From positions 1 through 51,757 of IMG/VR virus record IMGVR_UViG_3300032117_000040: DNA of 51,757 nt; one strand, written 5' to 3'. The stretch is from a virus. Taxonomy: Duplodnaviria; Caudoviricetes. Positions within the stretch are counted from its first letter, which is position 1. Every line of letters starts with the position of its first letter. The translations under genes and the position numbers were made by a program. Below, piece by piece: positions 6,217 to 51,757 of the stretch. The notes beneath the pieces are model-generated. The model ran no database searches. It was not told where the DNA came from and was given only the letters and a program-made list of their open reading frames with translations.

Positions 6217-6218
6217 AA

Positions 6219-7025: not shown

Positions 7026-7028
7026 TCT

Positions 7029-23858: not shown

Positions 23859-23867
23859 GGATTAAAA

Positions 23868-24158: not shown

Positions 24159-24168
24159 GGAGAAATAC

Positions 24169-24441: not shown

Positions 24442-24465
24442 AAACAAGTTTCGCTTGAGGACTGT

Positions 24466-27400
24466 ATGACCACTTTATTATTTGCAAATCAAGCGCAAAC
24501 TGCTCTTGCTCTTCCGATTGCAAGCACCGACACAACCATCACTGTTGCGGCGGGAACTGGGTCATACTTTCCAGCACCTTCTACAAATCAAGCAATTAAA
24601 TTGACGCTTGTTAGTACGCAAAGTCAACTCATTAATGAAATTGTCCTTTGCACTAACATAGCTGACGACGTATTGACTGTACAGCGAGGACAAGAAGGTA
24701 CAGTTGCTAAAGCTTGGGCTGTTGGCAGTTATGTTATTAACTTGATGACTGCTGGAACTGGTAACGCTTTTGCACAAATATATGGTTTGGAAAATGGTCT
24801 TTATTCAGCATCATTTTCAAACATGCTTACCCAAACAGGGCAGGTAATTTCCGCGCCAACACAAGCCACTGATTTGGTAAACAAGGCTTATGCAGATTCA
24901 ATTTCGCAAGGAACTTCAAAAGGCGAATGTCAATGCGCGACAACTACTGCAATTACTTTGTCAGGATTGCAAGTCATTGACGGATACACCACTTTGGCGG
25001 GCGACAGGGTTCTTGTAAAAAATCAATCAAATCAAGCTGATAACGGTATTTATGTTGCGAGCACTACGGCTTGGGCTAGATCAAACGATATGTCGGCATG
25101 GTCACAAGTACCCGGCGCTTCGACATTTGTTCAAAACGGCACTCTCTATACCAACACTGGCTGGAATGTGATCGCGCCCGAGTCGGGGACAATTGGAGTC
25201 ACTCCTATTGTTTGGACTCAGTTCTCAGGTATGGGCACTTATACCGCTGGTACGGGTTTGACATTAACTGGAACACAGTTCAGCATCACAAATACAGGTG
25301 TGGCCGCTGGTTCTTATGGTGTTGCGGCATCAGTGCCAACACTGGTTTTGAATGCACAAGGTCAAGTAACCAGTGCATCAAATACACCAATCAGCATTGC
25401 TCCAAGTCAAATCAATGCGCCGATTCCAAATTCAAGTTTGCAAAATTCATCAGTGACTATTGGTTCGACCAATTTGGCGCTTGGTGGAACTTTGACGACT
25501 CTTGCAGGCGTCAATATTAGCGGTTCGACGAACACGCTGACAAATATTCCAAACTCTGCGTTGAGTAACAACTCAGTTACTTATAACGGTGTGACTGTTG
25601 CATTAGGTGGAAGCGGGACAATTACTGCCGCTACAGTACATCCTTTGACTTTTGGAACTGGATTAAACAGCGGAAGTTTTGACGGTTCGGCTTCTCAAAC
25701 AGTTTCTATTGCGAACACGGCTGTGACTGCTGGGTCTTATGGCTCGGCTGGCTCGGTTGGCACTTTTACGGTAAATGCCCAAGGCCAACTGACCGCCGCT
25801 TCAACTGTCTCTATCGCAATCAGCAATACCCAAGTCTCAGGCTTGGGAACAATGTCCACCCAAAATGCAAATTCTGTTGCAATTACAGGCGGGACGATTT
25901 CGGGAGTTTCTTTAACTCTTGACAGTTTGGACAATACGCCAATCGGAGCAACAACTCCTAGCACTGGTAAATTCACAACATTGAGCGCCTCGGGTGTGGT
26001 CACTCTTGGAAATTACACAGGTTATGTATATGCCAATGGCGGCAGTCAAATCAGTGTTCAAACCACCATTCCAAATTCAGGATTGACTTATTCGTCAATC
26101 ACAATCAATGGAAATGCGGTTTCTTTGGGCGGCTCAACAACTGTGACCGCTGACACACCCAATGCTTTGACATTCAACAACAGCGGGTCAGGTGCGGCAT
26201 CAGGTTCAACTTTTAATGGCAGTTCACCTGTCACCATTTCCTATAACTCTGTTGGTGCATCGCCCTTGGCTGGTTCTACCAGCTTGGTCACGCTCGGCAC
26301 TGTTACAACAGGAACTTGGAATGCAACAACAATTACACCTTCTAATGGTGGAACAGGTGCAACAACATTAACTGGTTATGTGTACGGCAATGGTACAGGC
26401 ACGATGACAGCATCGACCACCATTCCTACAACAGCCCTTTCAGGAACTATTACAAACGCTCAATTAGCCAACAGCACCATTTCAAGTGTTTCGCTTGGGT
26501 CTAATTTGTACAGCTTGACATTTGGAACTCATTTGACAGGCAGTTCCTACAATGGTTCATCGGCTGTGACAATCGCCACTGATGCAACAAATGCAAACAC
26601 AGCATCAACCATTGTGGCTCGAGATGCTTCAGGCAACTTTAGTGCTGGAACAATCACAGCCAATTTGACAGGAACTGCGACCCAAGTTTCCAATTCCTTG
26701 ACCATTGGAACAGGATTGACAGGAACATCCTACAACGGAGGTTCAGCGGTCACTATTGCACTTGGTAATGTGGGAACAGCGGGTACTTACGGTTCATCGT
26801 ATCAAGTTCCTGTTATCACCACTAATGCACAAGGTCAAATTACTGCGGTAACAAATACAACCATCAATGCGGTCACTTTGACCACTGGTTCTATTTCTTC
26901 AGCCCCTGTAAATACGACCGACATTGCAAACAAGTTGTATGTTGACACAGTAGCTCAAGGTCTTGCTCCTAAATCCCCAGTTTTGGTTGCAACAACTGCA
27001 AACATTACATTGTCAGGCGAACAAACTATTGATGGTGTGACAACATCTTCAAGCCGAGTTTTGGTTAAAAACCAATCGCTGTCTCAAAACAATGGTATTT
27101 ATGTTTCTTCCTCGGGCGCATGGACTCGCTCATCGGATGCAAATACATGGAGTCAGTTGGTTTCTGCGTTTGTGTTTGTGGAAGAAGGTACAACACAAGC
27201 TGACACTGGGTGGACTTGTACAGTTGACCCGGGCGGCACTCTGGGCACTACCCCCGTCACTTGGGTTCAATTTAGTGGCGCTGGCACTTATTTGGCTGGC
27301 ACAGGACTGACGCTGACAGGTAACACATTCAGCATCACCAACACTACTGTGAGTTCTGGTTCTTATGGCTCTGCCACTCAGGTCGGCACTTTCACTGTCA

Positions 27401-29592
27401 ATGCTCAAGGTCAGCTGACAGCGGCTAGTAATACAACAGTGACACCAGCTGTGACTTCAATCACAGGATTGGGAACAGGCGTTGCAACTGCTCTTGCTTT
27501 AAATACTGGCAGTGTTGGCGCTTTTGTGGTCAATGGCGGCGCATTGGGTACACCTTCTTCGGGTACTTTGACCAATGCTACTGGATTGCCTTTGACAACT
27601 GGGGTGACAGGAGTTTTGGCTGTTGCCAATGGTGGAACTGGAGTCACGGCATCCAGCGGTGCAAATTCAGTTGTTTTGCGTGATGCCAATGCAAACATCA
27701 ATGCAAATTGTGTTTTTGAAGGTTTTACTTCACAAGCCGCAAGTGGGACAGCAATTGTTTTGACAGTTGCATCGGTTCAAAATTGGTTGATTACAGGTTC
27801 AGGCGGTCAAACAATTCAATTGCCTGATGCAACAACATTGCCAAATGGTGCATTGTTTACTTTTAACAATAACCAATCGTCAGGCACGATTGTTATTAAA
27901 AACAATTCGGGAACAACAGTTTGCACTACCCAATCGGGCGCATATATTCAAGTTGTTTTGATAAGCAATTCGATTGCGGCTGGCTCTTGGGATTACCATA
28001 ATGTTGCGCCATCAAATGCAAGTTGGTCTACCAATACACTTTCTTGGGCTGGTTCATATACTAATGGCACTTGGAATGGCAATGCGATTGGTGCGGCTTA
28101 TGGTGGAACTGGCGCAACATCATTGACGGGGTATGTGTATGGAAATGGAACAGGTGCAATGACTGCATCGACAACCATACCAACAACAGCATTATCAGGA
28201 ACTATTAGTAATAGTCAATTAGCTAACAGTACCATTTCGGGTGTTTCTCTTGGCTCAAACTTGAATGCCTTGACAATTGGCACTGGCTTGACAGGAACAA
28301 GTTACAACGGTTCTTCGGCTGTCACGATTGCTCTTGGCACTACAGCTGTCACAGCTGGCTCATATACAACAGCAAACATTACTGTTGATGCTTACGGTCG
28401 AATCACAGCCGCATCAAATGGCGCTGGTGGTGTGACTTCTTTCAACACTAGAACAGGCGCTGTAACGCTTACTTCTAGCGATGTCACTACTGCTTTGACT
28501 TATACGCCTGTCCAATCGGTCAGCGGCACGACAGGTCAAATTTCATCTACTGGTGGAACAACTCCAGTATTGGCTTTGTCAACAACGGCTGTGACCGCAG
28601 GTTCTTATACAGCAGCGAACATTACCGTTGATGCTTACGGTCGAATCACAGCCGCATCTAACGGTTCAGGTAGTTCGGGCACTGTGACAAGTGTTTCTGT
28701 TGTTTCCGCAAACGGTTTTGCTGGAACTGTTGCAACCGCAACAACTACACCCGCAATTACTTTAAGCACAAGTATCACTGGCGTTTTATACGGCAATGGA
28801 ACTGCGCTTTCTGCGGCTACTGGCTCTCAAATTGCAACAGCAATTGGAACAACAGCTGTAACAAACTCAACCAATACAACCAATATTTTGGGTGGTGCGG
28901 CTGGCTCTTTGGCATACAACACAGGTTCGGGAGCGACTTCATTCCTTGCTCTTGGCACTTCAGGTTATGTTCTAACAGCTGGCGCAAGCGCGCCTACTTA
29001 TGTTGCGCCAAGTACTTTAACTGTTGGTACAGCAACTAACGCTACCCAGTTGAATGGACAATCCGCAAGCTACTACACCAATGCTTCCAATCTTGCATCA
29101 GGAACTGTGCCAACTGCAAGACTTGGTTCAGGCACTGCTTCCAGTTCTACATATTTGCGTGGCGACCAAACCTATGCAACTCCTGTAACTTCAATTTCTG
29201 CTGGCACTGGCATTTCTGTTAGTGCATCCACTGGTGGTGTGACCATTACAAATAGTTCTCCTATGAGTGGCGGCGTTTGTCAATTGTGGGTTAACTTTAA
29301 TGGAACTATAAGCGGCACAAACTCACCAAGGGCTTCTTTAAATGTAAGTTCAGTTACTTACAATGGAACAGGTGATTACACGGTAAACTTTTCAATAACG
29401 CTTGCTGATACAAACTATGCGTATGTTACGGGCGTGAACAACGGGGTTGACGGTTCTGGCTCGGGATATGCTGGTATTCAAGGAAGCAGAAAAACAGCGC
29501 CAGCAACGACATCTTTGCGTTTGACAGGTTTTGGAACTGATACTGGTTCGGCGCAAAACCAACTCACTGTTAATGTGGCAATTTTTAGATAA
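24466..29592 (+). CDS. long tail fibre protein
   Basis: 1708 aa, Thr/Gly/Ser rich; two RVLVKNQ..NGIYV modules; repeated V.A.G..T.AS units; WVNFNG C-terminal domain. Confidence 0.85.
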   Translation: MTTLLFANQAQTALALPIASTDTTITVAAGTGSYFPAPSTNQAIKLTLVSTQSQLINEIVLCTNIADDVLTVQRGQEGTVAKAWAVGSYVINLMTAGTGNAFAQIYGLENGLYSASFSNMLTQTGQVISAPTQATDLVNKAYADSISQGTSKGECQCATTTAITLSGLQVIDGYTTLAGDRVLVKNQSNQADNGIYVASTTAWARSNDMSAWSQVPGASTFVQNGTLYTNTGWNVIAPESGTIGVTPIVWTQFSGMGTYTAGTGLTLTGTQFSITNTGVAAGSYGVAASVPTLVLNAQGQVTSASNTPISIAPSQINAPIPNSSLQNSSVTIGSTNLALGGTLTTLAGVNISGSTNTLTNIPNSALSNNSVTYNGVTVALGGSGTITAATVHPLTFGTGLNSGSFDGSASQTVSIANTAVTAGSYGSAGSVGTFTVNAQGQLTAASTVSIAISNTQVSGLGTMSTQNANSVAITGGTISGVSLTLDSLDNTPIGATTPSTGKFTTLSASGVVTLGNYTGYVYANGGSQISVQTTIPNSGLTYSSITINGNAVSLGGSTTVTADTPNALTFNNSGSGAASGSTFNGSSPVTISYNSVGASPLAGSTSLVTLGTVTTGTWNATTITPSNGGTGATTLTGYVYGNGTGTMTASTTIPTTALSGTITNAQLANSTISSVSLGSNLYSLTFGTHLTGSSYNGSSAVTIATDATNANTASTIVARDASGNFSAGTITANLTGTATQVSNSLTIGTGLTGTSYNGGSAVTIALGNVGTAGTYGSSYQVPVITTNAQGQITAVTNTTINAVTLTTGSISSAPVNTTDIANKLYVDTVAQGLAPKSPVLVATTANITLSGEQTIDGVTTSSSRVLVKNQSLSQNNGIYVSSSGAWTRSSDANTWSQLVSAFVFVEEGTTQADTGWTCTVDPGGTLGTTPVTWVQFSGAGTYLAGTGLTLTGNTFSITNTTVSSGSYGSATQVGTFTVNAQGQLTAASNTTVTPAVTSITGLGTGVATALALNTGSVGAFVVNGGALGTPSSGTLTNATGLPLTTGVTGVLAVANGGTGVTASSGANSVVLRDANANINANCVFEGFTSQAASGTAIVLTVASVQNWLITGSGGQTIQLPDATTLPNGALFTFNNNQSSGTIVIKNNSGTTVCTTQSGAYIQVVLISNSIAAGSWDYHNVAPSNASWSTNTLSWAGSYTNGTWNGNAIGAAYGGTGATSLTGYVYGNGTGAMTASTTIPTTALSGTISNSQLANSTISGVSLGSNLNALTIGTGLTGTSYNGSSAVTIALGTTAVTAGSYTTANITVDAYGRITAASNGAGGVTSFNTRTGAVTLTSSDVTTALTYTPVQSVSGTTGQISSTGGTTPVLALSTTAVTAGSYTAANITVDAYGRITAASNGSGSSGTVTSVSVVSANGFAGTVATATTTPAITLSTSITGVLYGNGTALSAATGSQIATAIGTTAVTNSTNTTNILGGAAGSLAYNTGSGATSFLALGTSGYVLTAGASAPTYVAPSTLTVGTATNATQLNGQSASYYTNASNLASGTVPTARLGSGTASSSTYLRGDQTYATPVTSISAGTGISVSASTGGVTITNSSPMSGGVCQLWVNFNGTISGTNSPRASLNVSSVTYNGTGDYTVNFSITLADTNYAYVTGVNNGVDGSGSGYAGIQGSRKTAPATTSLRLTGFGTDTGSAQNQLTVNVAIFR

Positions 29593-30333: not shown

Positions 30334-30513
30334 ATGGCGACCATTGACCAAACTGATGCCCGATTAAGTACGCACGAAGAAGTTTGTGCGTTGCGCTATG
30401 AAGTCATCAACGCGCGTCTAAAGCGCATCGAACAAATTATGATCACCTCTGCGGGGCTTATGATTTGTTCGATGGCAGGTATAGTCTTTACATTCTTGTC
30501 GCATGTAAAGTGA
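30334..30513 (+). CDS. 59-aa coiled-coil plus C-terminal TM protein (XhlA/holin-like); cassette A gene 1
   Basis: Translated by hand: MATIDQTDARLSTHEEVCALRYEVINARLKRIEQIMITSAGLMICSMAGIVFTFLSHVK. Confidence 0.7.
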   Translation: MATIDQTDARLSTHEEVCALRYEVINARLKRIEQIMITSAGLMICSMAGIVFTFLSHVK

Positions 30514-30514
30514 T

Positions 30515-31093
30515 GTGGATCCGATAACCGCCTTTGCAGCATGTAAGGCCGCGTATTCGGGTATCCAAGGTGCCATCGGCATCTACCAAGATTTAAAGAA
30601 AACAGGCCATGATCTGTCTGGCATCACCCACGAAGTTGGGGGGATGCTTTCTTCGTTTTTCCAAGGCCAACAGCATCTAGAAGACGAGCACGAAAAACAA
30701 AAAGAGCAGGCCAAAAAGGACATGGCCGCTGGCAAACCGCGCAATGTCACGATGGAAGCTATCGATAACGTGATGCGCTTGCGAGAGATACGGCGCTACT
30801 ACGCCGAACTAGAGCACATGGTGCGCTATGAGCTGGGTATGCCAGACCTGTGGCGAGAAATTGTGGATGAGCGTCAACGCCTGATCAACGAGCGTGAGGC
30901 GGCAAAACGAGCCAAAGAACTGGCCGAGCAGCAAGCTGAGGCCAAAAGACAGTACCGTTTGGCACGAATTCGTCAAAATATTTCCTTGGTATTGGCTATC
31001 ATCCTAGGAGTTGTAACCATCGTAGGCACCGTATGCGCGATAGAACTGCTGATTCAGGAAGATATGACGCGACGATACGAAATCTACGGATAA
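30515..31093 (+). CDS. 'MDPIT' helical protein with C-terminal TM; cassette A gene 2
   Basis: GTG start; 192 aa; homologous to 47947-48669. Confidence 0.8.
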   Translation: MDPITAFAACKAAYSGIQGAIGIYQDLKKTGHDLSGITHEVGGMLSSFFQGQQHLEDEHEKQKEQAKKDMAAGKPRNVTMEAIDNVMRLREIRRYYAELEHMVRYELGMPDLWREIVDERQRLINEREAAKRAKELAEQQAEAKRQYRLARIRQNISLVLAIILGVVTIVGTVCAIELLIQEDMTRRYEIYG

Positions 31094-31236
31094 CGGCTAT
31101 CGCGCTGACGGTCGCGCTTGTGATGCTGATTGCGTCAGGCGCATATTGGTGGACAATGGAAGAACGTAAATTGGGCTTGCGCAAAATCAAAGAATTGAAA
31201 CAGGAGCTGGAAATATGCAAAAAAGCATCGCAATAG
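31033..31236 (+). CDS. TM plus coiled-coil protein overlapping gene 2 in the -1 frame; cassette A gene 3
   Basis: 67 aa; TM segment IALTVALVMLIASGAYWW; positional equivalent of 47798-48082. Confidence 0.65.
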   Translation: MRDRTADSGRYDATIRNLRITAIALTVALVMLIASGAYWWTMEERKLGLRKIKELKQELEICKKASQ

Positions 31237-31391
31237 CTTTGCTGATATTGTTATCAGGTTGCGAAGATCATTTTAGGTATCCATGCCAAGACCCAACCAA
31301 CTGGGACAAAAAAGAATGCAAGCCGCCAATCTGTTCAGTCACTGCAACTTGCCCTGAGCAGCTAGTAAAGATTAATAAGGACAAACCATGA
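31215..31391 (+). CDS. 58-aa Cys-rich lipoprotein; cassette A gene 4
   Basis: Translated by hand; lipobox LSGC; 21/37 ungapped identities to 47568-47801. Confidence 0.8.
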   Translation: MQKSIAIALLILLSGCEDHFRYPCQDPTNWDKKECKPPICSVTATCPEQLVKINKDKP

Positions 31392-31663
31392 AAAATTGGA
31401 CGCCTGAACAATGGGGTGATTTCTTTGAATCGCTCTCGCTGATGCTGTTGGAAGCGTCATTGTCTATCGCTTTCGTAGGGGGCATCTTCGCTATACTTTA
31501 TGGGCTGATCCATGTGTCGCAGCCAATGGAAGGCCAAAGTCTGAACGACAAAGCGATGTTTGCCATTCTGACGCCTTTGATGATTTTCTTGCCAACGATT
31601 ATTGACAAGATAATTGCCAAGAAAACAGAATCTCGTGTAAAAGAAAAGGGCGACAATGTTTAA
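31388..31663 (+). CDS. 2-TM membrane protein (holin candidate); cassette A gene 5
   Basis: Two hydrophobic segments; FAILYGLIHVSQP matches FALLYSVTFVTQP in cassette B. Confidence 0.7.
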   Translation: MKNWTPEQWGDFFESLSLMLLEASLSIAFVGGIFAILYGLIHVSQPMEGQSLNDKAMFAILTPLMIFLPTIIDKIIAKKTESRVKEKGDNV

Positions 31664-32090
31664 TCCCTATATGATTCTTGGCGCGCTGGCGCTGTGCGTG
31701 GCTGCTTTCTTTGAAGGTATCCACTATCAACGCTTGGAAGACGTGGCGCAGATTGCGCAACTGAATGAGCAAACCCGACAAGTCGAACAACAGCGCGTGC
31801 AAGAGGCCAACGATCACGCAATCAAATTGAGAGATGCAAATGCAAAAGCTGACCAACAAATTATTAAACTTAAGTCTGACGTTGCTTCTGGCGAGTTGCG
31901 CCTCTCGCTCCGTGCCGTACAACCCGCCAGCGATCCCGCCTCTGCCGCCAGAGCTGGGGTCGAAGCAAGATGCGACATTGACCCAACGGCTGCTCAATCT
32001 CTTGTCACCATCGCAGCAGACGGGGACAAAGCGATCCGACAGCTCAACGAATTGATTGATTTTTACAACCAAGTAAGGAGTGCTAAATGA
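31656..32090 (+). CDS. Rz: i-spanin
   Basis: N-terminal TM, coiled coil, GELRL and I..DGD.AI.QL motifs. Confidence 0.85.
   Translation: MFNPYMILGALALCVAAFFEGIHYQRLEDVAQIAQLNEQTRQVEQQRVQEANDHAIKLRDANAKADQQIIKLKSDVASGELRLSLRAVQPASDPASAARAGVEARCDIDPTAAQSLVTIAADGDKAIRQLNELIDFYNQVRSAK
31834..32055 (+). CDS. Rz1: o-spanin embedded in Rz
   Basis: +1 frame; lipobox LASC; Pro-rich; start at 31834 or 31840. Confidence 0.8.
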   Translation: MQMQKLTNKLLNLSLTLLLASCASRSVPYNPPAIPPLPPELGSKQDATLTQRLLNLLSPSQQTGTKRSDSSTN

Positions 32091-32536
32091 ATGAGAATTT
32101 GAATTACGACCAAGCTGGTCTTGACGTTACCGAGGACTCTGAGGGCTGTCGCCTGACGGCCTATCCTGATCCCGGTACAGGCGGCGATCCTTGGACTATC
32201 GGCTATGGACATACAGGTGCGGATGTGCACCCCGGCATGACCATTGATCACGCGCAAGCCGAAGAATTTTTGCGCCATGACGTGCGCAGCGCTGAAGCAG
32301 CTGTCAAACGTCTCGTCAAAGTCGAGCTGACTCAGCACCAATTTGACGCTTTGGTTGACTTTGCATTCAACTGCGGCGCTGGCAATTTGCAACACAGCAC
32401 TTTGTTGAAGCTGGTCAATGAAGGTGACTTTGCCACCGCGTCTACGCACTTTGGCGATTGGGTCAAAGGCGGCGGCCATGTGTTGCCCGGATTGGTGAAA
32501 CGCCGCCACGCCGAAACCGTGCTGTTTAATTCTTGA
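32087..32536 (+). CDS. endolysin, GH24 lysozyme
   Basis: EG.RL.AY.D...WTIGYGHT, QFDALV.F.FN.G and GLV.RR..E motifs. Confidence 0.95.
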   Translation: MNENLNYDQAGLDVTEDSEGCRLTAYPDPGTGGDPWTIGYGHTGADVHPGMTIDHAQAEEFLRHDVRSAEAAVKRLVKVELTQHQFDALVDFAFNCGAGNLQHSTLLKLVNEGDFATASTHFGDWVKGGGHVLPGLVKRRHAETVLFNS

Positions 32537-32769: not shown

Positions 32770-32986
32770 TGCGCGCCACCTTTGCCTTTTTGAGCACAAG
32801 TTCGTACTGCTTTTTGGCTTCATCATCGAGCTTGCGCAAAGGCAAGTTCTGATAGTAGCTCCACTTGTCTTGGTACTGTTTGATCTCAGAAGGTGGCACC
32901 CAACCTAGCGCGCGCCATCTCTCTTGAATATCAGTGCCCGAAGGCGTCCAAATGTGCTCGTTAGCTGGGGATGATGGTAAAGCCAT
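32762..32986 (-). CDS. hypothetical protein
   Basis: 74 aa, coupled to the upstream HNH gene; WR.LGWVPPSE motif. Confidence 0.6.
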   Translation of the reverse strand: MALPSSPANEHIWTPSGTDIQERWRALGWVPPSEIKQYQDKWSYYQNLPLRKLDDEAKKQYELVLKKAKVARIK

Positions 32987-33534
32987 TATTTTTCCTTTCT
33001 TTTACGGGCAGCTCGTTGAGCCCTGTGTCTTGCATTATTGCTTTCTGTACAAAGAGTGCATCTGCACTTATGTGACTCGTATCCGGCTCTTGTGCCGTGA
33101 ACCCAAGTTCTCAATTTTCCACTTACCAAAGCCTTTTCTATCGGCATACGTTGTAAACGCTTAAATAAAGTATCAGTGCGCAATGTAAGCTTCTTAGCCC
33201 ATTGAGAAACAGTCAACGTCATACCGTTGTGAGTCAGTCTCACGTTACGTCGCTGATTATTCAATTGCTCTTCTTTTGTAGCCCATCGACAATTGTTAGG
33301 GCTATAACCTTTATTTGTGTCTAACCTATCCAAAGATTTGCCGTCAGGGACTTCACCCATATCAGCAAAAAAATTGTCGTAACTTTTCAACCATCTGGCG
33401 CATACAGTTATTCCTCTTCCGCCATAGTTAACCCACGCAATGTCTTTTTTATCTTGACAACGTCTGCACATGTTGCGCCAAGCAAAATAAGTCTTGGTGC
33501 CCGAAGGATTTTTCCATTTTGATCTATTGGTCAT
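32986..33534 (-). CDS. HNH-type homing endonuclease-like protein
   Basis: W..M..RC, YGGRGI.VC.RW and SLDR.D..GY.P.NCRWAT motifs; C-terminal HGT..CRC..C. Confidence 0.75.
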   Translation of the reverse strand: MTNRSKWKNPSGTKTYFAWRNMCRRCQDKKDIAWVNYGGRGITVCARWLKSYDNFFADMGEVPDGKSLDRLDTNKGYSPNNCRWATKEEQLNNQRRNVRLTHNGMTLTVSQWAKKLTLRTDTLFKRLQRMPIEKALVSGKLRTWVHGTRAGYESHKCRCTLCTESNNARHRAQRAARKRKEK

Positions 33535-43606: not shown

Positions 43607-43840
43607 ATGACACAAGATGAAATCATTGAGATGTGGAAGAACTCAGGCGACTTAGAAATTATTGGTATGCCTTACAGCAAGATTGAAGCCTTTGCCAAAT
43701 TGGTGGAGGAACGTGCAACAGCTAAAGAGCGTGAGGCGTGTGCAAAGATATGTGATGGCATGGACAGCATAAGCGACTACTACACACTACGAGTTGAACT
43801 AATTTGCGCCAACGCAATCCGAGCAAGGGGGCAAGAATGA
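43607..43840 (+). CDS. hypothetical protein (FAKLV..EREACAKIC..CANAIRARG family)
   Basis: 77 aa; ends inside the junction repeat. Confidence 0.65.
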   Translation: MTQDEIIEMWKNSGDLEIIGMPYSKIEAFAKLVEERATAKEREACAKICDGMDSISDYYTLRVELICANAIRARGQE

Positions 43841-43968
43841 AATTTACACCACAACCATTCAAGAGTGACATCGTTGAATTTACATGGTTTGACTTGTTGC
43901 GTTTAGCATTTGGCAAAGAATTGCGTGACAGCGCATTGATTGCACGTCGAGCAAGGGGACAAGAATGA
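43837..43968 (+). CDS. 43-aa hypothetical protein
   Basis: Starts and ends within junction repeats. Confidence 0.55.
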   Translation: MKFTPQPFKSDIVEFTWFDLLRLAFGKELRDSALIARRARGQE

Positions 43969-44195: not shown

Positions 44196-44228
44196 AGTTG
44201 ATGAATCAATCCGAGTAAGGGGACAAGA

Positions 44229-44426
44229 ATGAAACGCTACTTTTCAACCATTGGGTATTGCATGACACCATTCATCATAAGCTATGCGTTTTGGTACGTG
44301 ATAGGCGCTGGCATCTCAGCAAGTTGGGATTTGGCTAACTGGACAACTGGTTTAAAAGTTACGTTGACCGTATGGGCGTGTGTCTTTGCAATCATGTTGC
44401 TTTTCAAACTTGAGCACAAAAAATGA
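44229..44426 (+). CDS. 2-TM small membrane protein
   Basis: 65 aa, hydrophobic. Confidence 0.6.
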   Translation: MKRYFSTIGYCMTPFIISYAFWYVIGAGISASWDLANWTTGLKVTLTVWACVFAIMLLFKLEHKK

Positions 44427-44580: not shown

Positions 44581-44694
44581 ATGGACTGGATTGACATTGT
44601 TGTTGGCGGCATTGTTGCTATTTTTATCGTAGGCGGTTGCTTGGCGTTGTACGCTGATGCAACGAGCCACCCTTGGGAGGATAGTGATGATTGA
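44581..44694 (+). CDS. 37-aa TM peptide
   Basis: Translated by hand: MDWIDIVVGGIVAIFIVGGCLALYADATSHPWEDSDD; GGAGG RBS. Confidence 0.55.
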   Translation: MDWIDIVVGGIVAIFIVGGCLALYADATSHPWEDSDD

Positions 44695-45235
44695 AGCAAT
44701 GAAACAAACGCTTAAGGCGTTGGAACGTAGTGTCGCAACTTGTTTTGACCAATATTCACATCAACAAGTAATGAGCCAACCAGACCACTTCATCAATCAA
44801 GCCATCACATCCCTACGCAAAGCCATTGCAGAGGCAGAGAAGCAAGAGCAGGGTGAGCCTGATGATGAGGTGCTTGGTTTTAATGGTTGGGGGTTTCCTA
44901 TTGAGCCTCCACCAAATCCAAAGCAACAGCAGGGTGAGCCAGTTACTCTTGAGGAAATACGAAAAGCAATGATTTTTGGAATCCCTCTCTACACCCACCC
45001 ACAACCCAAAGCAGAGAAGCAAGAGCCTGTTGGATGGATAGATAGTAAAGGCAACATGCTTTGTGTAAAGATAAATGAATCTTGCAGACCCCTTTACACC
45101 CACCCACAACCCCGCAAGCCGCTGACGGATGAGCAGATTGACGACCTTGCTAGAACAATGGTCAAAGGTAACAAGTCTGTCAATTGGCTTGCCAGAGCAA
45201 TCGAAGCCGCCCACGGCATAGGAGTTGACAAATGA
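44687..45235 (+). CDS. mosaic hypothetical protein with repeated EPV...LYTHPQP modules
   Basis: Probable start at 44687; ends ARAIEAAHGI. Confidence 0.65.
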   Translation: MIEAMKQTLKALERSVATCFDQYSHQQVMSQPDHFINQAITSLRKAIAEAEKQEQGEPDDEVLGFNGWGFPIEPPPNPKQQQGEPVTLEEIRKAMIFGIPLYTHPQPKAEKQEPVGWIDSKGNMLCVKINESCRPLYTHPQPRKPLTDEQIDDLARTMVKGNKSVNWLARAIEAAHGIGVDK

Positions 45236-45699
45236 ATCAAAAAATGACTAAAAAATTGCTGTTTGAAAAAGTTGATTACAACGCGGAAACAGGTGTCTTT
45301 ACATGGAAACGAAATGGCGATGTTGCTGGTTATCCAAAATCAAATGGTTACATGCAAGTAAGAATTGATGGCAAATATTATTTGCTTCATAGGCTTGCTT
45401 GGTTGTATGTGTATGGAGAATTTCCATTAATGGATTTAGACCATATAAACCGTGTACGTTCAGACAATAGATTGTCAAATTTAAGATTGGCAACTAAATC
45501 CACAAATCAACAAAACAGGTCGTTGCAAATCAATAACCAATCTGGTGTCTCAGGCGTTGTTTTTAACAAACAATGCAAAACATGGAACGCAAGAATAAAA
45601 GCAAATAAAAAATTAATTCATCTTGGTTCTTTCAAATCATTTGATGATGCTGTTATTGCTAGAAAAAAAGCCGAAGAATTATTATGGAGTAAGACATGA
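45232..45699 (+). CDS. HNH endonuclease with AP2-like domain
   Basis: HRLAW, DHIN..R.DNR..NLR, SGV.GV and HLG.F...A..AR motifs. Confidence 0.9.
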   Translation: MNQKMTKKLLFEKVDYNAETGVFTWKRNGDVAGYPKSNGYMQVRIDGKYYLLHRLAWLYVYGEFPLMDLDHINRVRSDNRLSNLRLATKSTNQQNRSLQINNQSGVSGVVFNKQCKTWNARIKANKKLIHLGSFKSFDDAVIARKKAEELLWSKT

Positions 45700-45863
45700 A
45701 TCTAAACCAAGGCAAGGTGGCTGGCGGTCTGGTCGATGAAATGCTAGAGCTGGTTCACAAGTATGACGAATCGCTATACATGGCCACCGTAATTGGGTGC
45801 TTGGAGCTGGTTAAGCAACAGTTGATTAATGAAAGTTTGGAGAATCAAAATGACATTGATTGA
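45696..45863 (+). CDS. hypothetical protein
   Basis: Translated by hand (MNLNQGKVAGGLVDEMLELVHKYDE...); ATGA-coupled. Confidence 0.5.
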   Translation: MNLNQGKVAGGLVDEMLELVHKYDESLYMATVIGCLELVKQQLINESLENQNDID

Positions 45864-46059
45864 TCTTGGATTGTTGTGTTTGTTCCCTGTGATTTTTATT
45901 TTGGCAAAAGCGTTTGATCGCTACGCCCACCCACAACCCCGTACATGGGTAGACCTGACTGGAGAAGAATTGGAAACACTTTTGCGTGAAAACCGTTCGC
46001 TAACTTTAGGCGCAATATGGACAGTTGCCGACAAACTCAAGGAGAAAAACAATGGATGA
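45850..46059 (+). CDS. hypothetical protein (TM followed by WVDLT..E..KLKEKN module)
   Basis: Probable start at 45850 after GGAG. Confidence 0.55.
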   Translation: MTLIDLGLLCLFPVIFILAKAFDRYAHPQPRTWVDLTGEELETLLRENRSLTLGAIWTVADKLKEKNNG

Positions 46060-46168
46060 CGATATTTATAACATCCTCATGCTTTGCACAATCCTGTTTT
46101 TTGGAGCAGGATTCTTTACCGCTTTGCTAATTGCCAGTTGGGTGATGATTGAAGCCTTGTCAGACTAA
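46052..46168 (+). CDS. 38-aa TM peptide
   Basis: Translated by hand (MDDDIYNILMLCTILFFGAGFF...); AAGGAG RBS; convergently overlaps the lysin end. Confidence 0.55.
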   Translation: MDDDIYNILMLCTILFFGAGFFTALLIASWVMIEALSD

Positions 46169-46756
46169 AACCTGATAAGCCTTTTGAGTCAATGCAATTC
46201 GTTCAGCAAGGCCAAAGATGCCGCCATTGATCTTGCGAGTTACAGCTTCGTAGTTCATGGCATCTGCCAAAGCATTGAGGTTATGTGTTGACCAAAACCA
46301 ACCAGCACTTAACGCAGCGTATTTAGGTGTGGACACCAAATCGGGCGAGGCCACAAGATCGGCATTGACGGCCTGACCAAAGTGCCAATACGAGTCATGC
46401 CCCGTGAGTTGGATACAACCCCTGCCTCTGAACTTGAACCCATCACCAGACGCTTCGTCACGATTGCCCATGCGTGAGGCGTAAACCTTGTTGGCGATGC
46501 GTTGCGGCTGGTGCGAGTAGGCATTAGCAATTTCCAAAGTAGGGAATCGGCTAGGCCACAGTTTAACCAAGGTTTCGGCTTTGTAATTCAAGCCTTCCTC
46601 AAGCGTTTTGAAGTTGTTGCACTCATGGCTTGCTTGACCGATAAACGCTGCTTGCTGGCGAGGTGTTGCAATGTTGAACTTTGCAAACGTATCGTTAAGA
46701 GCAGGTGTCCATTCGATACCAATACCAAGTTGTTGGAGTTGTTCAGCGCTTACCAT
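46160..46756 (-). CDS. endolysin, GH19 (chitinase-like)
   Basis: AAFIGQ..HE, EE.LNY, FRGRG.IQLTG, SAGWFW and T..INGG..GL..R motifs. Confidence 0.95.
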   Translation of the reverse strand: MVSAEQLQQLGIGIEWTPALNDTFAKFNIATPRQQAAFIGQASHECNNFKTLEEGLNYKAETLVKLWPSRFPTLEIANAYSHQPQRIANKVYASRMGNRDEASGDGFKFRGRGCIQLTGHDSYWHFGQAVNADLVASPDLVSTPKYAALSAGWFWSTHNLNALADAMNYEAVTRKINGGIFGLAERIALTQKAYQVLV

Positions 46757-47177
46757 GAATGATCTCCCTCATTTTTGCGTATTGGTCGATGCAGGCGTTA
46801 AGTTCGACAATGGCTTGGTCTCCGTCCCCTGTGATGGTGACAAGAGCTTCACTAACCGATCTGTCAAGTTCGGCTCTCGTTTCTGTATCGCTAGAGGCGG
46901 CACATCCAGCTTGGGGGGTGACGTTGACGAACAACCGCTGCTCACCAGTATGGATAGCATTAACAAGCTGAGAGTTTTTAGCTGCCAAAGATTTTTTTGT
47001 TTGTGCGAGTTGGGCATCTGCTTGCTCCTTTGCGTCAGACATTTCCTGATTTTTTTTACCAATGACGATAGCATCTTCTGCCTCTTTCTCTTTGTAGCCT
47101 TGATGGTGTCCATAACCATAAACACCTGCCAAGGCCATTAAAACGCTCAAGATAACCCAAGGGTTAAACATCGTCAT
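46743..47177 (-). CDS. Rz: i-spanin
   Basis: FNPW N-terminal TM; G..RL and I..DGD.AI..L motifs; homologous to 31656-32090. Confidence 0.85.
   Translation of the reverse strand: MTMFNPWVILSVLMALAGVYGYGHHQGYKEKEAEDAIVIGKKNQEMSDAKEQADAQLAQTKKSLAAKNSQLVNAIHTGEQRLFVNVTPQAGCAASSDTETRAELDRSVSEALVTITGDGDQAIVELNACIDQYAKMREIIHGKR
46769..47017 (-). CDS. Rz1: o-spanin embedded in Rz
   Basis: ATG at 47017 after AAGGAG; lipobox SSGC; LT.RL..LLSPSQ shared with the cassette A Rz1. Confidence 0.8.
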   Translation of the reverse strand: MPNSHKQKNLWQLKTLSLLMLSILVSSGCSSTSPPKLDVPPLAIQKREPNLTDRLVKLLSPSQGTETKPLSNLTPASTNTQK

Positions 47178-47626
47178 TCCTTAACCGATTGACGAGCCGC
47201 AGCCATAGCTTCACGCTCATGGTCTGGCTCAAGATGATTGGCAGGCGTTGAAGGCGCTGAAGGTGCAGACCATTCGGCTACTTGAATAGACTGCACAGGA
47301 GGCGCAACATAAGCCGCTGTATTTGATTTGGCAGCGTTCATCATGTCCTTGGCCTCATTGCTCACACCTTTGGTCAAGATGCCACCAATGCCGCCCACAA
47401 TCAATAAAACAATGTCGTTCAACATCTTTGTGTAGGCTTGGTCAATCGGGGCCATTTGCTTAATCGGCTGAGTCACAAACGTCACCGAATACAACAAAGC
47501 AAACGTAATAAACGCAAATATCAACGTCACCATAATGACGACAAACGCTCTGACGCGAACGTCTATCTCATCGGCAGTTAGCCTGGCATTGTTGGGCGCT
47601 AAGAGTTGTAACAGGATTTCCTTCAA
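47174..47626 (-). CDS. 2-TM membrane protein (holin candidate); cassette B gene 5
   Basis: 150 aa; homologous to 31388-31663. Confidence 0.75.
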   Translation of the reverse strand: MKEILLQLLAPNNARLTADEIDVRVRAFVVIMVTLIFAFITFALLYSVTFVTQPIKQMAPIDQAYTKMLNDIVLLIVGGIGGILTKGVSNEAKDMMNAAKSNTAAYVAPPVQSIQVAEWSAPSAPSTPANHLEPDHEREAMAAARQSVKE

Positions 47627-47801
47627 TTTTTTTCTCCAAGATAGGGGCTACAAGATACTCAGGGCAGGTTTGGGTGAACTCACAAATAGGTTTTTGACAT
47701 TGTGCATCACCAAAATGGTTGGGGTCTTGGCAGATATATCGATAACGATCTTCACAGCCAATAAGTATCCAACTGAAAAAAATAAGTATACAAAGCCTCA
47801 T
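47568..47801 (-). CDS. Cys-rich lipoprotein; cassette B gene 4
   Basis: Lipobox LIGC; CED..RY.CQDP motif. Confidence 0.8.
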   Translation of the reverse strand: MRLCILIFFSWILIGCEDRYRYICQDPNHFGDAQCQKPICEFTQTCPEYLVAPILEKKIEGNPVTTLSAQQCQANCR

Positions 47802-48082
47802 TGCTTTTCCTTTTGCTCTTGCATTTCTTTCTGAGCCTGTTGCAGTTTTCGCAAAGTATGCTCCATTGCCATTTCAGCCACATACGCCCGATACCAAACA
47901 TATCCAGCCGCAGGCACTAACAAAGCAAACAACAACACCAACAAGATTAGTATTGCATGAAATCCTGAGTCGTCAGCCGCAGAGTAATCATCAAGCCCCA
48001 CACCCACGCCGCCAGAAGCCCGAGCGTTACCGCCAAGGCGACCCGCATTTGTCGGCGCTTGCTGATTTCCTCGCGTAGCCAT
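47798..48082 (-). CDS. TM plus coiled-coil protein overlapping gene 2 in the -1 frame; cassette B gene 3
   Basis: 94 aa; AAGGA/GAGG RBS; TM segment ILILLVLLFALLVPAAGYVWY. Confidence 0.7.
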   Translation of the reverse strand: MATRGNQQAPTNAGRLGGNARASGGVGVGLDDYSAADDSGFHAILILLVLLFALLVPAAGYVWYRAYVAEMAMEHTLRKLQQAQKEMQEQKEKQ

Positions 48083-48669
48083 CTTGCCTCATTCCTTTTC
48101 CTGATTTGCTCACGCCTTGCGAATTCCTGTTCTTCAACAATCCGACTGTGCATCTTAAGAAACCTCGTGTATATGTCCTTTAACTCAGGGGGCGCATACA
48201 CCATTGCCTCTCGTATCTCTATGCTCAAGTTCTCCAGTTGAAGTTCTACGAGCGCCCTATCCATTGCGTTCTTGGCGAGGTTTGCGTTTGGGTCGTAGAC
48301 CGTGTTTGATGTTTCCTCAAGGTCTTTGTAATAATTTGTGAGCTTCTGATGCAAATCAAAGAAGTCTCCCATTTTTTGACCAACATCCACGATAAGCTGT
48401 GCTTGGAGTTCTTCAGGGTCTTGGTGACGTTTAACTTTTTTAACAGGCTCTGCAACGGCGACAACAGCTTTTTTAGCGCCAAATAAACCTTTGAGCCAAA
48501 CCCAAATCCCTGAAACTTCTTTTGCAATGGCTTTAACGTCACCAATTGCTCGCTCAGTCCCCTTCTTGAACTCCTCAATCGCCATGCGTCCTTCATGGAG
48601 TTGATCGCAACCCGCTTTGATCTGTTTGACCAAAGTGACTGCGCCAAGAAGAAGGGTGATCGGGTCAAT
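47947..48669 (-). CDS. 'MDPIT' helical protein with C-terminal TM; cassette B gene 2 (probable ATT start)
   Basis: The ORF-track frame extends to ATT-GAC-CCG-ATC-ACC at 48669, with an in-frame TAG two codons upstream. Confidence 0.75.
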   Translation of the reverse strand: MDPITLLLGAVTLVKQIKAGCDQLHEGRMAIEEFKKGTERAIGDVKAIAKEVSGIWVWLKGLFGAKKAVVAVAEPVKKVKRHQDPEELQAQLIVDVGQKMGDFFDLHQKLTNYYKDLEETSNTVYDPNANLAKNAMDRALVELQLENLSIEIREAMVYAPPELKDIYTRFLKMHSRIVEEQEFARREQIRKRNEARWLREEISKRRQMRVALAVTLGLLAAWVWGLMITLRLTTQDFMQY

Positions 48670-48676
48670 GGGCTAC

Positions 48677-48907
48677 TCACTTTTTGCCAAGTTGCGACCA
48701 GAACACAGTTGCCGCACCAAACGCGCCAGTTATCCAAAGAATAGGCTTGGCAGCAGAAGCAATCCAGCCTAAGACCTTAAAAGCGCCTTGCAACGATTGG
48801 AAAGCATCGACCAAACCTTTGGTGTTTGTATCAATCGAATCAATCTTTGTTTCCACCAAAACAAGGCGGTCATAGATTTCTTTGTGAGTAATGGTCTGCT
48901 CTTCCAT
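48677..48907 (-). CDS. coiled-coil plus C-terminal TM protein; cassette B gene 1
   Basis: 76 aa; THKEIYDRL motif; same architecture as 30334-30513. Confidence 0.7.
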   Translation of the reverse strand: MEEQTITHKEIYDRLVLVETKIDSIDTNTKGLVDAFQSLQGAFKVLGWIASAAKPILWITGAFGAATVFWSQLGKK

Positions 48908-48916
48908 CTCAACACC

Positions 48917-49657
48917 TTATGATTTCATGATGTATGCGAGAGCATAGTAAGGAGGCAGGTTTGCATTTGTTCCGCTGACACCAGTTGATGCGTTGGTAGT
49001 CGCAACAGAAATACCAGTAGTGGCAGTTCCTGTTGAGTTTGTTGTTGAATTTTGGTTAATGACGCTGTATCCACCTCCAGCGTTAACATTAATTACTGAA
49101 CCTGTAACGCCACCACTATGAAAGTGTCCAGGGTCTGTAACAACAGAACTTGCCGTGTGTGTATGTGAAACAACAATAGCGTCTTTAGAACCACCAGTTC
49201 CACCAACAGAGTACAAGTTACCAGCGCCAACAATAAATGAATCTTTTAAGTTTGGCGTTCCATTAGTACCATCACAAATTAACCAGCCCGAGGGAATAGA
49301 CCCAATTGAACCAGACCACAAAGAAATCAATCCGCTAGGAATTGTTGCGCCAGTAGATGATTGAACACCAATAATTCCATACAAGTTATCGTAAGTTTGG
49401 ATAGTGTTGCCAACAGCATCTTGCAACACAAACTTGTAGTTGTAACCGTAGGTCAACCAAATCTCAGTCTGTGGGCGACCATCCGAACCCAAGACGATAG
49501 GATTGGTGTTGGAATACACACCACCGTTATCAGAGTAAGTAGCAAGCGGTGTGCTTGAACCTGCTTGATAGGTGTAGATTTGACCACCAGCTAAAGGCAA
49601 GCCTGTGCTAGTGAAGAATTGGAAACCGTTACCGATGGGTGCAAGATTAACGCTCAT
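48917..49657 (-). CDS. short tail fibre/spike with a podovirus-type N-terminal attachment domain and a collar-like domain
   Basis: G.PL.GG..YTY.AG..TPL.TY..NTNPI.L...GR; IPSGWLICDG.NGTPNL; NLPPYYALAYIMK. Confidence 0.75.
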   Translation of the reverse strand: MSVNLAPIGNGFQFFTSTGLPLAGGQIYTYQAGSSTPLATYSDNGGVYSNTNPIVLGSDGRPQTEIWLTYGYNYKFVLQDAVGNTIQTYDNLYGIIGVQSSTGATIPSGLISLWSGSIGSIPSGWLICDGTNGTPNLKDSFIVGAGNLYSVGGTGGSKDAIVVSHTHTASSVVTDPGHFHSGGVTGSVINVNAGGGYSVINQNSTTNSTGTATTGISVATTNASTGVSGTNANLPPYYALAYIMKS

Positions 49658-51221
49658 TTTTGTTCCTTACCAAATCATTTAAATATGAATAACCACTAGC
49701 AGGAGGCGCAGCTATCAACGATTGTGTGGGGTCATAGATAGGTGAAAGTTTTGGTTTAGCACCTAAACGCATTTGAGCGCCAAGATTCTCAACTGAATTT
49801 TGACGCATAGCCGTTGCCGCAGCACGAGAACCAACAGCACCCGCTGTAAATGGCACACCAATCAAAGGCTCGTAAACAGTTGCACCACCGCTAAAAATAC
49901 TACTAACAGGGCCTGTTGGCGCAAATCTGCCATAGAACTTCAGCATATTTTGAACTGTTCCGCCTTTAGCAGCGTCTTTAATTGCGTCTTGTTCTTCAGG
50001 CGTGAAAGTACGCATTTTTTTTTCATTTTTAGCCAATTGACGCAATTGTTGCGCCATTGAATTTTCTGCGCCAGATTGCGTAAATTTGCTTTTATCCAAC
50101 TCAGCGTTTTGCAACATATCGTCAAAAATCTCAGATTTTTTCAAACGACTGTATGAGTTGCGAGCCTCAGCCCAATGTTGCATACCTTCTGGGTTGCCAG
50201 TAGTAATGTGATCTTGGGGGGCGTTTAACAAATAATTGTCAAAATCGTCTTTGAGAATGGAAGCCAATCTGCGTGTATCTGGGTCTGCGCTTTTTTGTTG
50301 ACCTTGAATCATTTTGCGAATTGCTTGTAACTCACGAAAATCTTTAGGTCTTTCAACATTGGTCATTTCCTCCAAAACATTGGCAATCCCAACTTGGGTT
50401 TTTGGATGGAATCCTTCGTCTCTCAATTCCTGAGAAACATGAAACATTTGATCTGCAAATTTATTTGTGTCAAATCTAATGCCAGCTTGGTTAGCTTTGT
50501 CATATAAATTTTTTGATTCACTTATCAACTGTTCAGTACTTGGTGCGCCCGTTGCTTTTCTAAGTGGATTCAAACCAGAAGTCGCGCCAACTCCTAAAGA
50601 TGTAGCCAAACCAGCGGCGGGGCTTCCTGTTTCTTCTGCAACGTATTGACCAGCGCCAGCAGCCACAGGCGCAGTTGCAAGTTGTCTACCGGCATTTTTG
50701 GTAAACATATCTGCAATTTGTTTTACGACAGGGCTGGCTGTTGTTTTAGCCATGTTGTACATTGAACTAAGTTCAGATGCCGCTCCACCTAAACCACTAC
50801 CAGCGGCTTCCATTACCCGACCTGCTTGCGTAGTTGGCGCTTTTAAACCAGCCTTCTCAAGATTAGTGGAAATAATCTCGCTTGGCATACGCAAGTTAGA
50901 ACCTGACACACGATTGATAATGCTGTTTAACGTATCACCAAAAGGGACGGCAACGCCACCTAGCAATGCTCCAGGTACACCACCAGCTTCAAATCCTGCA
51001 ATTGTTGTAGGAATTGTTTGAGCAGCACCACGAGCCAAAAGTTGAGCACCTCGACCAACTTTAGCCAAGCCTTGTTTAGCAGCAGTTTTGTACTCGCCAA
51101 GCAAACTTGTATCTTCTTCTGGTTGAGCAGAAAGATTAGAAATAATAGAGGAAACATCTTGCTCGCCAGAGCCACCAGCATCCATGCTTTTAACAAGATC
51201 GTCAATGCTAATTTCAGCCAT
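49647..51221 (-). CDS. probable DNA ejection/internal virion protein
   Basis: 524 aa, Ala/Gly-rich and helical; lies upstream of the spike as in podovirus gene order. Confidence 0.55.
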   Translation of the reverse strand: MAEISIDDLVKSMDAGGSGEQDVSSIISNLSAQPEEDTSLLGEYKTAAKQGLAKVGRGAQLLARGAAQTIPTTIAGFEAGGVPGALLGGVAVPFGDTLNSIINRVSGSNLRMPSEIISTNLEKAGLKAPTTQAGRVMEAAGSGLGGAASELSSMYNMAKTTASPVVKQIADMFTKNAGRQLATAPVAAGAGQYVAEETGSPAAGLATSLGVGATSGLNPLRKATGAPSTEQLISESKNLYDKANQAGIRFDTNKFADQMFHVSQELRDEGFHPKTQVGIANVLEEMTNVERPKDFRELQAIRKMIQGQQKSADPDTRRLASILKDDFDNYLLNAPQDHITTGNPEGMQHWAEARNSYSRLKKSEIFDDMLQNAELDKSKFTQSGAENSMAQQLRQLAKNEKKMRTFTPEEQDAIKDAAKGGTVQNMLKFYGRFAPTGPVSSIFSGGATVYEPLIGVPFTAGAVGSRAAATAMRQNSVENLGAQMRLGAKPKLSPIYDPTQSLIAAPPASGYSYLNDLVRNKNER

Positions 51222-51757
51222 TATTTGACTCCTGATAATTCAACTAGTTGCTTGCGCTTTTGTTCCAAATCAGAAAGATTTTGCAGACCATTATCTTTCA
51301 TAAGTTTTTTCAATGCGTTCTTATCATGGTCGTCAATGCTAGCGGTTTGACCAGTGCCAACAATACCAATATATTGCATTAATGCAGGATTCTTTGAAAA
51401 ATTACTAAATTGATTTTGAAAAGCATTAACGGCTGGCAAATTGGGATTTTTAGGATCACCCGCTGCGTTCATCATGCCAGTTGCCATAAGTTTTTGATTT
51501 TGGATGTTTCCAAGGTCTTGGCGAACCAAATCAGCCAAAGCATCTTTCTTAAGGCGGAAACTACCGTAAGCATCTTTTTTGCTTTGTGCATCCGCATCTG
51601 TGCGAGGGTTTAAATTTTGAATACGTTGTTGAATCAACTTCAAAACTTCTTGTTCCTTAGAACTCAAACTAGCTTGATTAGTTTTTCCTGCCAACACATC
51701 AGCAATAGGCCCTGTTTCCACTTGTGGGTCCTTCAAATACGTCAACAATTTTTTAGC
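51221..51757 (-). CDS. probable ejection protein, 5'-truncated by the window edge
   Basis: Frame is open to the window edge; its stop overlaps the next start. Confidence 0.5.
   Translation of the reverse strand, partial: AKKLLTYLKDPQVETGPIADVLAGKTNQASLSSKEQEVLKLIQQRIQNLNPRTDADAQSKKDAYGSFRLKKDALADLVRQDLGNIQNQKLMATGMMNAAGDPKNPNLPAVNAFQNQFSNFSKNPALMQYIGIVGTGQTASIDDHDKNALKKLMKDNGLQNLSDLEQKRKQLVELSGVK

Follow-up and report, generated by a model that had tools for sequence, protein, structure and literature searches.

A GH19-type lysis cassette on a freshwater phage contig is probably an allele of an exchangeable lysis module, most likely from a second phage

The DNA analysed here, called the window, is an entire IMG/VR virus record (IMGVR_UViG_3300032117_000040; Duplodnaviria; Caudoviricetes) of 51,757 bases, and the stretch occurs in 24 sequencing runs from lake or freshwater metagenomes. 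It carries two predicted lysis cassettes. Cassette B, the main subject of this report, lies on the minus strand and comprises five genes for membrane proteins or lipoproteins (g1 to g5), a spanin gene pair (Rz and the embedded Rz1) and a GH19 endolysin gene. A sequence-only reading of the window had proposed this minus-strand order, from a coiled-coil/transmembrane (TM) protein to GH19, and the open reading frames (ORFs) were found exactly there (Table 1). It had also proposed that a plus-strand cassette, here called cassette A, has the same gene order, which it does, with a GH24 endolysin in the last position.

Table 1. Features of the window discussed in the text
Feature	Position	Strand	Description
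Cassette B (g1, g2, g3, g4, g5, Rz/embedded Rz1, GH19)	48907-46160	minus	eight tightly packed ORFs
g1B	48677..48907	-	76 amino acids (aa); helical N-terminal part and Gly/Ala-rich hydrophobic C-terminal segment; in the variable g1 slot
g2B	47947..48669	-	240 aa, all-helical, single C-terminal TM segment; ATT start, giving IDPIT
g3B	47798..48082	-	94 aa, one TM segment, charged C-terminal helix; candidate holin
g4B	47568..47801	-	77-aa lipoprotein; lipobox Cys, then Cys-rich mature part with a conserved Cys motif
g5B	47174..47626	-	150 aa, two TM segments, phrog_25359; TTG start uncertain
Rz-type i-spanin	46743..47177	-	N-terminal TM segment and periplasmic coiled coil; phrog_1327 at 5.4e-16
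Rz1-type o-spanin lipoprotein	46769..47017 (about)	-	within Rz, other frame; lipobox SSGC, Pro-rich mature part; phrog_3198 at 1.8e-4
GH19 endolysin	46160..46756	-	198 aa, soluble; no signal, signal-arrest-release or TM segment
Cassette A (g1A-g5A, Rz/Rz1, GH24 endolysin)	30334..32536	+	canonical lysis site of myovirus-type phage, converging on the helicase side
Tail-collar fibre gene	48917..49657	-	phrog_1800 at 5.8e-24
Two podovirus-type late genes	49647..51757	-	one of 524 aa, and the final 178 aa of one of ~475 aa that runs off the end of the contig
Early-gene segment common to A-type and B-type phages	45686..46051	+	likely crossover or mis-join zone

The last gene of cassette B is, as judged from its predicted product, a member of family GH19. 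The protein scores 44 bits against PF00182 (cutoff 25.5; 3e-11, Pfam), matches phrog_181 at 1.8e-73 (PHROGs) and aligns with solved structures (PDB 9eoi at 9.3e-43, 4ok7 at 1.4e-27), the 9eoi alignment spanning residues 19-197 and taking in the catalytic region with its HE...E stretch, the Glu residues of which are presumably catalytic. Similarity to GH19 phage endolysins (9eoi, 9ms6 and 4ok7, E 9.3e-43 to 1.4e-27) extends over the full length, and the protein is an ordinary single-domain member of the family. With this predicted endolysin and the predicted Rz/Rz1 pair, cassette B has the endolysin and spanin components by which a lysis cassette of a Gram-negative phage is recognised. A soluble GH19 endolysin beside an embedded two-component spanin implies a Gram-negative host and the need for a holin, as a soluble enzyme of muramidase type without an export signal would require a membrane hole to reach the wall. 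Among the membrane genes, g5 belongs to phrog_25359 (3.4e-14 for B, 2.1e-10 for A), and g1B has no match in Pfam or NCBIfam and meets only phrog_5225 in PHROGs, at E 0.0032.

The g2 and g3 genes overlap, g3B beginning 136 nucleotides (nt) ahead of the end of g2 in a different frame. In the window g2 starts with ATT at 48669, 8 nt past the g1 stop codon, and the next canonical start is a TTG at 48633. Among related loci (numbered with the prefix L), g2 also starts with ATT in L003, L004, L009, L011 and the distant L036, and homologues of g2B begin MDPIT or VDPIT, with GTG or ATG at the same residue. An in-frame stop lies immediately upstream of the ATT in the window (TAG, at two codons) and in L003, L004, L009 and L036; in L011 no in-frame stop occurs within the 30 nt upstream. 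The first 28 codons differ from those of close relatives by 10/2, 11/2, 12/5 and 13/5 synonymous/non-synonymous changes, and because they change mostly synonymously, which indicates purifying selection, the ATT start is real. It probably keeps translation of g2 low or coupled to that of g1.

The B-type g2 family contains 207 proteins and the A-type family 76, and a set of 1.84 billion proteins contains 182 representatives of g2 at 50% identity. The AlphaFold2 model of g2 is made up entirely of helices with a C-terminal anchor (predicted local distance difference test score 69.8). Searched with Foldseek, the model found nothing in the PDB at E <= 0.001 and only generic helical bundles. The ESM Atlas yielded only unnamed viral clusters, and no entry in Pfam, NCBIfam, PHROG or PDB was matched. 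In IMG/VR, g2 is found in 429 B-type and 239 A-type stretches. The two cassettes had been valued as an internal replicate showing which residues are conserved, a use that these hundreds of homologous cassettes have overtaken.

Cassettes A and B were compared gene by gene against 1000 full shuffles and 1000 12-residue block shuffles, the latter preserving the layout of TM segments and coiled coils. In BLASTP, g4 (49% identity, E 8e-18), g5 (24%, E 6e-5), Rz (30%, E 1e-16) and Rz1 (45%, E 1e-7) all aligned with scores that were reached by 0/1000 shuffles of both kinds. The g2 pair (22%, E 7e-5) was equalled by 0/1000 full and 9/1000 block shuffles. Profile-profile comparison of the A and B families of g2 gave a probability of 97.4% (E 1.2e-11, 159 columns) and superseded an hhalign test of the B2-family profile against the lone A2 sequence, which reached only 31.8%; the A-family profile also recovers B-type g2, at E 3.3e-10 in the window and again in two further records. 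The claim that genes 2, 4 and 5 outscore shuffled sequences therefore stood clearly for 4 and 5, and for 2, marginal by block shuffling, it was settled by the profile-profile result. The peptide matches quoted in its favour for gene 2, gene 5 and Rz all fall within the BLASTP alignments.

At the other positions homology is weaker or absent. The g3 pair reached E 0.096 in BLASTP, with 4/1000 full and 245/1000 block shuffles scoring as high, and its families gave 61.6% in hhalign (E 7.8e-5), the top of 15 pairings of which the other 14 lay at 0.1-21.8%. No BLASTP alignment was obtained for g1, the score being reached by 160 full and 213 block shuffles of 1000, and types A1 and B1 gave 0.1% in hhalign. 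The endolysins proved unrelated (E 13; 620 full and 629 block shuffles of 1000), and that of cassette A is a GH24 lysozyme (PF00959 at 5.8e-48). The comparisons support shared ancestry of the A and B forms of g2, g4, g5, Rz and Rz1 and are suggestive of it for g3; the g1 genes, by the same sequence evidence, are non-homologous replacements of each other and the endolysins have unrelated predicted folds. Homology at all seven positions, as the sequence-only reading had implied, thus fails at two of them and is only suggestive at a third. Its view of the relationship as old, with no recent duplication, agrees with the 22-49% amino-acid identity and with a sole nucleotide match of 74 nt at 73%. 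With that protein identity and no alignable DNA beyond the 74 nt, synonymous sites between A and B must be saturated.

The composition of the module was followed by extracting and clustering positional ORFs from 81 B-type and 81 A-type loci, the window included; single-sequence tblastn counting of g1, g3 and g5 was too insensitive and was replaced by this extraction. A positional g3 homologue is present in 73/81 B-type and 77/81 A-type loci, its type always tracks that of g2, and it has the form classical for holins (57-97 aa, one TM segment and a C-terminal helix rich in Lys and Glu). Small TM proteins of at least four unrelated kinds occupy the g1 slot; kind A1 pairs with both g2 types (28 and 15 loci) and B1 with B-type g2 only (10 loci). 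Among 80 B2-type loci, g4 occurs in 30 and g5 in 23, and the Cys motif of g4 is retained in 14 distinct proteins from 23 loci. Minimal cassettes (L036-L038, L044, L045 and L076) contain only g1, g2, g3, one 130-176-aa protein and the endolysin, and since these do without g4 and g5, the latter appear to be accessory. The endolysin fold is exchanged freely within the module (GH19, GH24, peptidases), and g1-g3 accompany spanin and endolysin in myo-, podo- and long-tailed backbones. L006, L007 and L008 are natural hybrids in which the fibre gene and g1-g3 are 91% identical to cassette B and are followed by an Rz 84% identical to that of cassette A (window 31652-32099) and by a different endolysin. 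At the canonical backbone site, relatives (L095, L144, L154, L156 and L159) have A-like, B-like or mixed cassettes; the backbone proteins of L095 are 91-98% identical to those of the window (one 75%), yet the enzyme at its canonical site is a GH19. The near-identical relatives elsewhere, the L006-L008 hybrids, the GH19 of L095 at the canonical site and the free combination of g1 and g2 types together favour A and B being alleles of one module and not paralogues.

How such a module would work can be proposed from the form and arrangement of its genes. The holin would be one of g1, g3 and g5. The best candidate hole-former is g3, with its single TM segment and charged C-terminal tail, since g2 and g3 are the only membrane proteins found in every cassette, the minimal ones included. 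The g2 product would be a tail-anchored helical protein of the cytoplasm, the end of its gene that encodes the TM segment overlapping the g3 start and its own ATT start being weak, and it may regulate g3 with antiholin-like timing. Interchangeable small TM proteins in the g1 slot could act as a second holin or a modulator. The putative disulfide-rich lipoprotein g4 and the two-TM protein g5 would form an optional accessory pair, in which g5 is also the second candidate holin.

These genes may have other roles. The holin might be g5 or lie elsewhere, and g1-g3 might be no lysis genes at all but membrane proteins for virion or tail-fibre maturation at the membrane or for superinfection exclusion, placed only by chance between fibre and endolysin, a reading that we consider unlikely although it deserves weight. 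It is favoured by the lack of any match of g1, g3 and g5 to a holin family in Pfam, NCBIfam or PHROGs, even though their form and position fit, which also counts against their assignment to lysis, and by the conservation of g2 (32 invariant columns across 17 sequences), far beyond that usual for holins. Its main support comes from the 59-aa g1A protein (30334-30513, plus strand), which matches NF048001, the gene transfer agent (GTA) head formation protein of the RCAP_rcc01685 family, at E 3.3e-6, but this match has 26.8 bits against a cutoff of 50 and covers residues 4-36 only, and g1B has none. A faint Cor-like match of g4A (phrog_1119, E 0.0088) points the same way; taken as an assignment of g4 to the Cor-type superinfection-exclusion lipoproteins it was rejected, no stretch passing and nothing being found for g4B. 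A role outside lysis is hard to reconcile with the minimal cassettes, where no other TM protein accompanies a soluble endolysin, with the common movement of g1-g3, spanin and endolysin among the three kinds of backbone named above, and with the replacement of the g1 slot by non-homologues, which is typical of holin genes.

Cassette B resembles lambda-type cassettes in that the gene for a soluble muralytic enzyme lies by an i-spanin gene with an embedded o-spanin, small membrane genes precede these and the set is at the end of a late operon. Unlike lambda-type cassettes, it has not one dual-start holin gene but five genes for membrane proteins or lipoproteins, no described holin family is matched by any of them, and the order is membrane genes, spanins and endolysin last. 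The roles proposed for g3 and g2 recall phage T4, in which the single-TM holin T is timed by separate partner proteins, the antiholins RI and RIII, one of which is cytoplasmic. No sequence or fold similarity was found, and g2 differs from them in its C-terminal TM anchor and in the overlap of its gene with g3. The nearest deposited genomes, those of the uncultured phages MW202484 and MW202462/MW202544 from Manatee Spring, have a B-like cassette after the fibre genes, converging on early genes and ending in a 'chitinase A' (GH19); their g2 proteins are 40.6% and 31.9% identical to g2B. Every small gene in these genomes is annotated as hypothetical, and MW202484 has a shorter version in which fewer genes separate g2 from the endolysin. 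Among cultured phages the sole lead is Limnohabitans phage DC31, where a weak homologue of g2 is encoded three genes upstream of the endolysin. Outside its supplementary annotation tables, which might name the neighbouring genes, the DC31 paper names an endolysin and no holin (PMC12195039). Full-text literature searches found no description of this gene set, and megablast against GenBank phages returned nothing for window 1-25000 and, for the window's second half, a single match of 227 nt.

The surroundings of the two cassettes appear to belong to different kinds of phage. From 1 to about 46051 the window comprises a complete myovirus-type phage (phage A), with a full contractile-tail virion module at 3095-30027 (large terminase, portal, capsid, sheath, tape measure, baseplate and a 1708-aa fibre) and with helicase, exonuclease, DNA polymerase and primase encoded at 34-43 kilobases (kb). 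Like cassette A, the lysis cassettes of 80 helicase relatives converge on the side of the helicase. By its relatives this backbone closes on itself, as they place terS shortly beyond the primase: terS is a few kb past it in L101, L141 and L165, and L178 (a contig of 39,990 bases) runs through polymerase, primase and a TreK-like gene to terS with nothing B-like between. A related A2-type genome with terminal repeats measures 40,349 bases, and the longest contig of the A g2 cluster 41,040 bases. On the B side, the fibre gene and cassette B form one 3.7 kb mosaic module (49673-45931) that is 91-97% identical in blastn to six independent IMG/VR contigs (L003-L005, L009, L010 and L012), the rest of whose genes are unlike the window. 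The two late genes beyond the fibre probably encode ejection proteins or internal proteins of the virion. In L083 and L091 both come after genes for a DNA-ejection protein, a head-closure/tail protein and a fibre, as in a P22-like late region, the upstream neighbours in L083 being DNA-ejection phrog_598, head-closure phrog_578 and a tail fibre. Logan contigs of four lake runs extend 502-750 letters past position 51757.

The change from one phage to the other can be narrowed to a short interval. L175, an independent A-type contig, is 99.2% identical to 45577-46051 and then has 2.65 kb of small genes without lysis genes; it continues with window 1-127 at 100%, patches of 1787-2367 and then 2568-8738 at 99.5%. 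By these matches a near-identical phage A runs from 46051 back to position 1 and closes with no cassette B in between. B-type contigs follow the window down to 45931 (L004) or 45686 (L011). From these limits, the stretch of early genes common to A and B genomes would be just a few hundred bases long, and the switch in the window falls inside it. In run X7 one Logan contig tracks 45191-46051 and then has 229 letters unlike the window, and in runs X1, X3 and X4 the corresponding Logan contigs end at 46020-46026. The A g2 is 99% identical to those of L255 and L256. A and B do not qualify as intragenomic segmental duplicates, as their closest relatives lie elsewhere, in other lake-water contigs (B 91-97%, A 99%), and a single replicon is contradicted by L175 and by the lone g2 of long related records. 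The claim that cassette B is a second copy within one genome is unsupported on the same ground, phage A closing without B in L175, and in view of the continuation of the B side into a podovirus-type late operon. We regard it as probable that the record consists of phage A and part of another phage, the two having been joined by co-assembly or by very recent recombination.

Several observations weigh against this conclusion. The record is one contig, rated 100% complete by CheckV, and the evidence for a mis-join is at the level of contigs and not of reads. Logan depths of the A side and the B side are similar in X4 (10.1 versus 9.3-10.5) and X7 (9.8 versus 6.7-7.9). In X1, contigs over 45191-51757 abut at equal depth, and because they do so evenly the HNH and small-gene segment would lie natively beside cassette B in at least one genome. 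Genes 120-1790 lie on the strand of the B block, so that one leftward operon is conceivable, and our searches may have missed the records nearest to the window, so that another, independent contig might share this junction. Two further depth observations carry little: X1 has no Logan contig on 41000-43512 while 45191-51757 is covered, which was not used as evidence, and depths of 3.3-7 versus 12-13 in X3 are only a hint.

The single contig, its completeness, the similar depths and the common strand would suit one real phage genome with both cassettes and two functional lysis systems. It would have arisen by natural recombination, or else a phage of myovirus type would have taken up the end of a podovirus late operon between its early genes and terS. 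Insertions do occur there, since the region from 46051 to 2568 varies between the near-identical genomes of L175 and the window. Such a genome is nevertheless improbable. The record is 51.7 kb long and still cut inside a gene, whereas related backbones close at about 40 kb; podovirus ejection proteins have no evident use in a contractile-tail virion; and the block is missing from L175. Each of ten long records related to the window (32-68 kb, terminal repeats in four) has a single g2 where the window has two, and replication or structural genes of the window occur in 0/80 B2-type loci, apart from repeat-domain matches to three tail genes (22728-29592). Spelt out, the contig would be one replicon, a phage or a recombination intermediate, with two complete but anciently diverged cassettes (GH24 and GH19), each with its own g2/g3 holin-regulator pair of an undescribed kind, the second captured together with podovirus fibre and ejection genes; to this also we give little credence. 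A piece of bacterial chromosome carrying two neighbouring prophages, with a lysis cassette in each, would also present two virion modules and two such cassettes on a single molecule. This origin is very improbable, as no bacterial gene, integrase or tRNA was seen in the window, phage A encodes a DNA polymerase, primase and helicase of its own and closes as a circle or permuted genome in independent contigs, and the A/B boundary falls within early genes that both phage types share and not at an attachment site. On balance cassette B is probably a complete lysis module, an allele of a shuffled freshwater-phage module that it shares with cassette A, and derived most likely from a second phage.

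Around the junction some further sequence features were recorded. A 21-nt sequence with a stretch like a ribosome-binding site and a start codon occurs three times at small early-gene boundaries (43820-43840, 43948-43968 and 44212-44232), and these repeats could be linker sequences for module exchange. A 24-nt repeat (peptide ..Y(T/A)HPQP..) is found at 44984-45007 and 45089-45112 in a 192-aa protein (44657-45235) and again at 45916-45939 in a 76-aa protein (45829-46059). The HNH gene is at 45232-45699 (phrog_99 at 3.3e-64). Logan depth is several-fold higher over 43.5-45.3 kb, as for segments common to many phages.

Elsewhere in the phage A backbone, the minus-strand gene at 1509-1790 encodes a 93-aa protein with a match to Phage_TreK (Pfam PF24229, 1.3e-20), and a homologue lies between primase and terS in L178. 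Upstream of terS, at 2110-2703, a 20-nt motif is repeated four times (2110, 2224, 2450 and 2684), overlapping repeats with a 14-nt period lie at 2498-2600 and an inverted repeat pairs 2498-2534 with 2619-2655. This repeat-rich region may be a packaging or replication site; the matching variable region of L175 has a different repeat array. A 670-aa protein of the head module (7029-9041, plus strand) combines NUDIX (PF00293, 8.6e-17) and DUF2213 domains and has a weak head-maturation-protease match (phrog_6216 at 5.7e-154). A 182-aa ORF at 32986-33534 on the minus strand separates two genes that adjoin in L095 (backbone proteins 75-98% identical); it has no match in the 80 helicase loci or in any Pfam family and looks like an insertion, perhaps homing-endonuclease-like from the impression that its sequence gives.

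The endolysin and spanins of cassette B are best seen as ordinary members of known families, and its status as a 'second copy' as that of a second allele from another phage. The apparent duplicate is probably an artefact of contig formation, which matters before any statistics on within-genome paralogues are drawn from the record. What the window documents is an exchangeable lysis module carried by hundreds of lake-phage contigs, and the hybrids show which exchanges are tolerated: g1 combines with g2 of either type, and B-type g1-g3 can be followed by an A-type Rz. The overlapping g2/g3 genes, present at over 600 IMG/VR loci and belonging to no known family, form the constant core of this module and are candidates for an undescribed holin-plus-regulator system in the phages of abundant freshwater bacteria.

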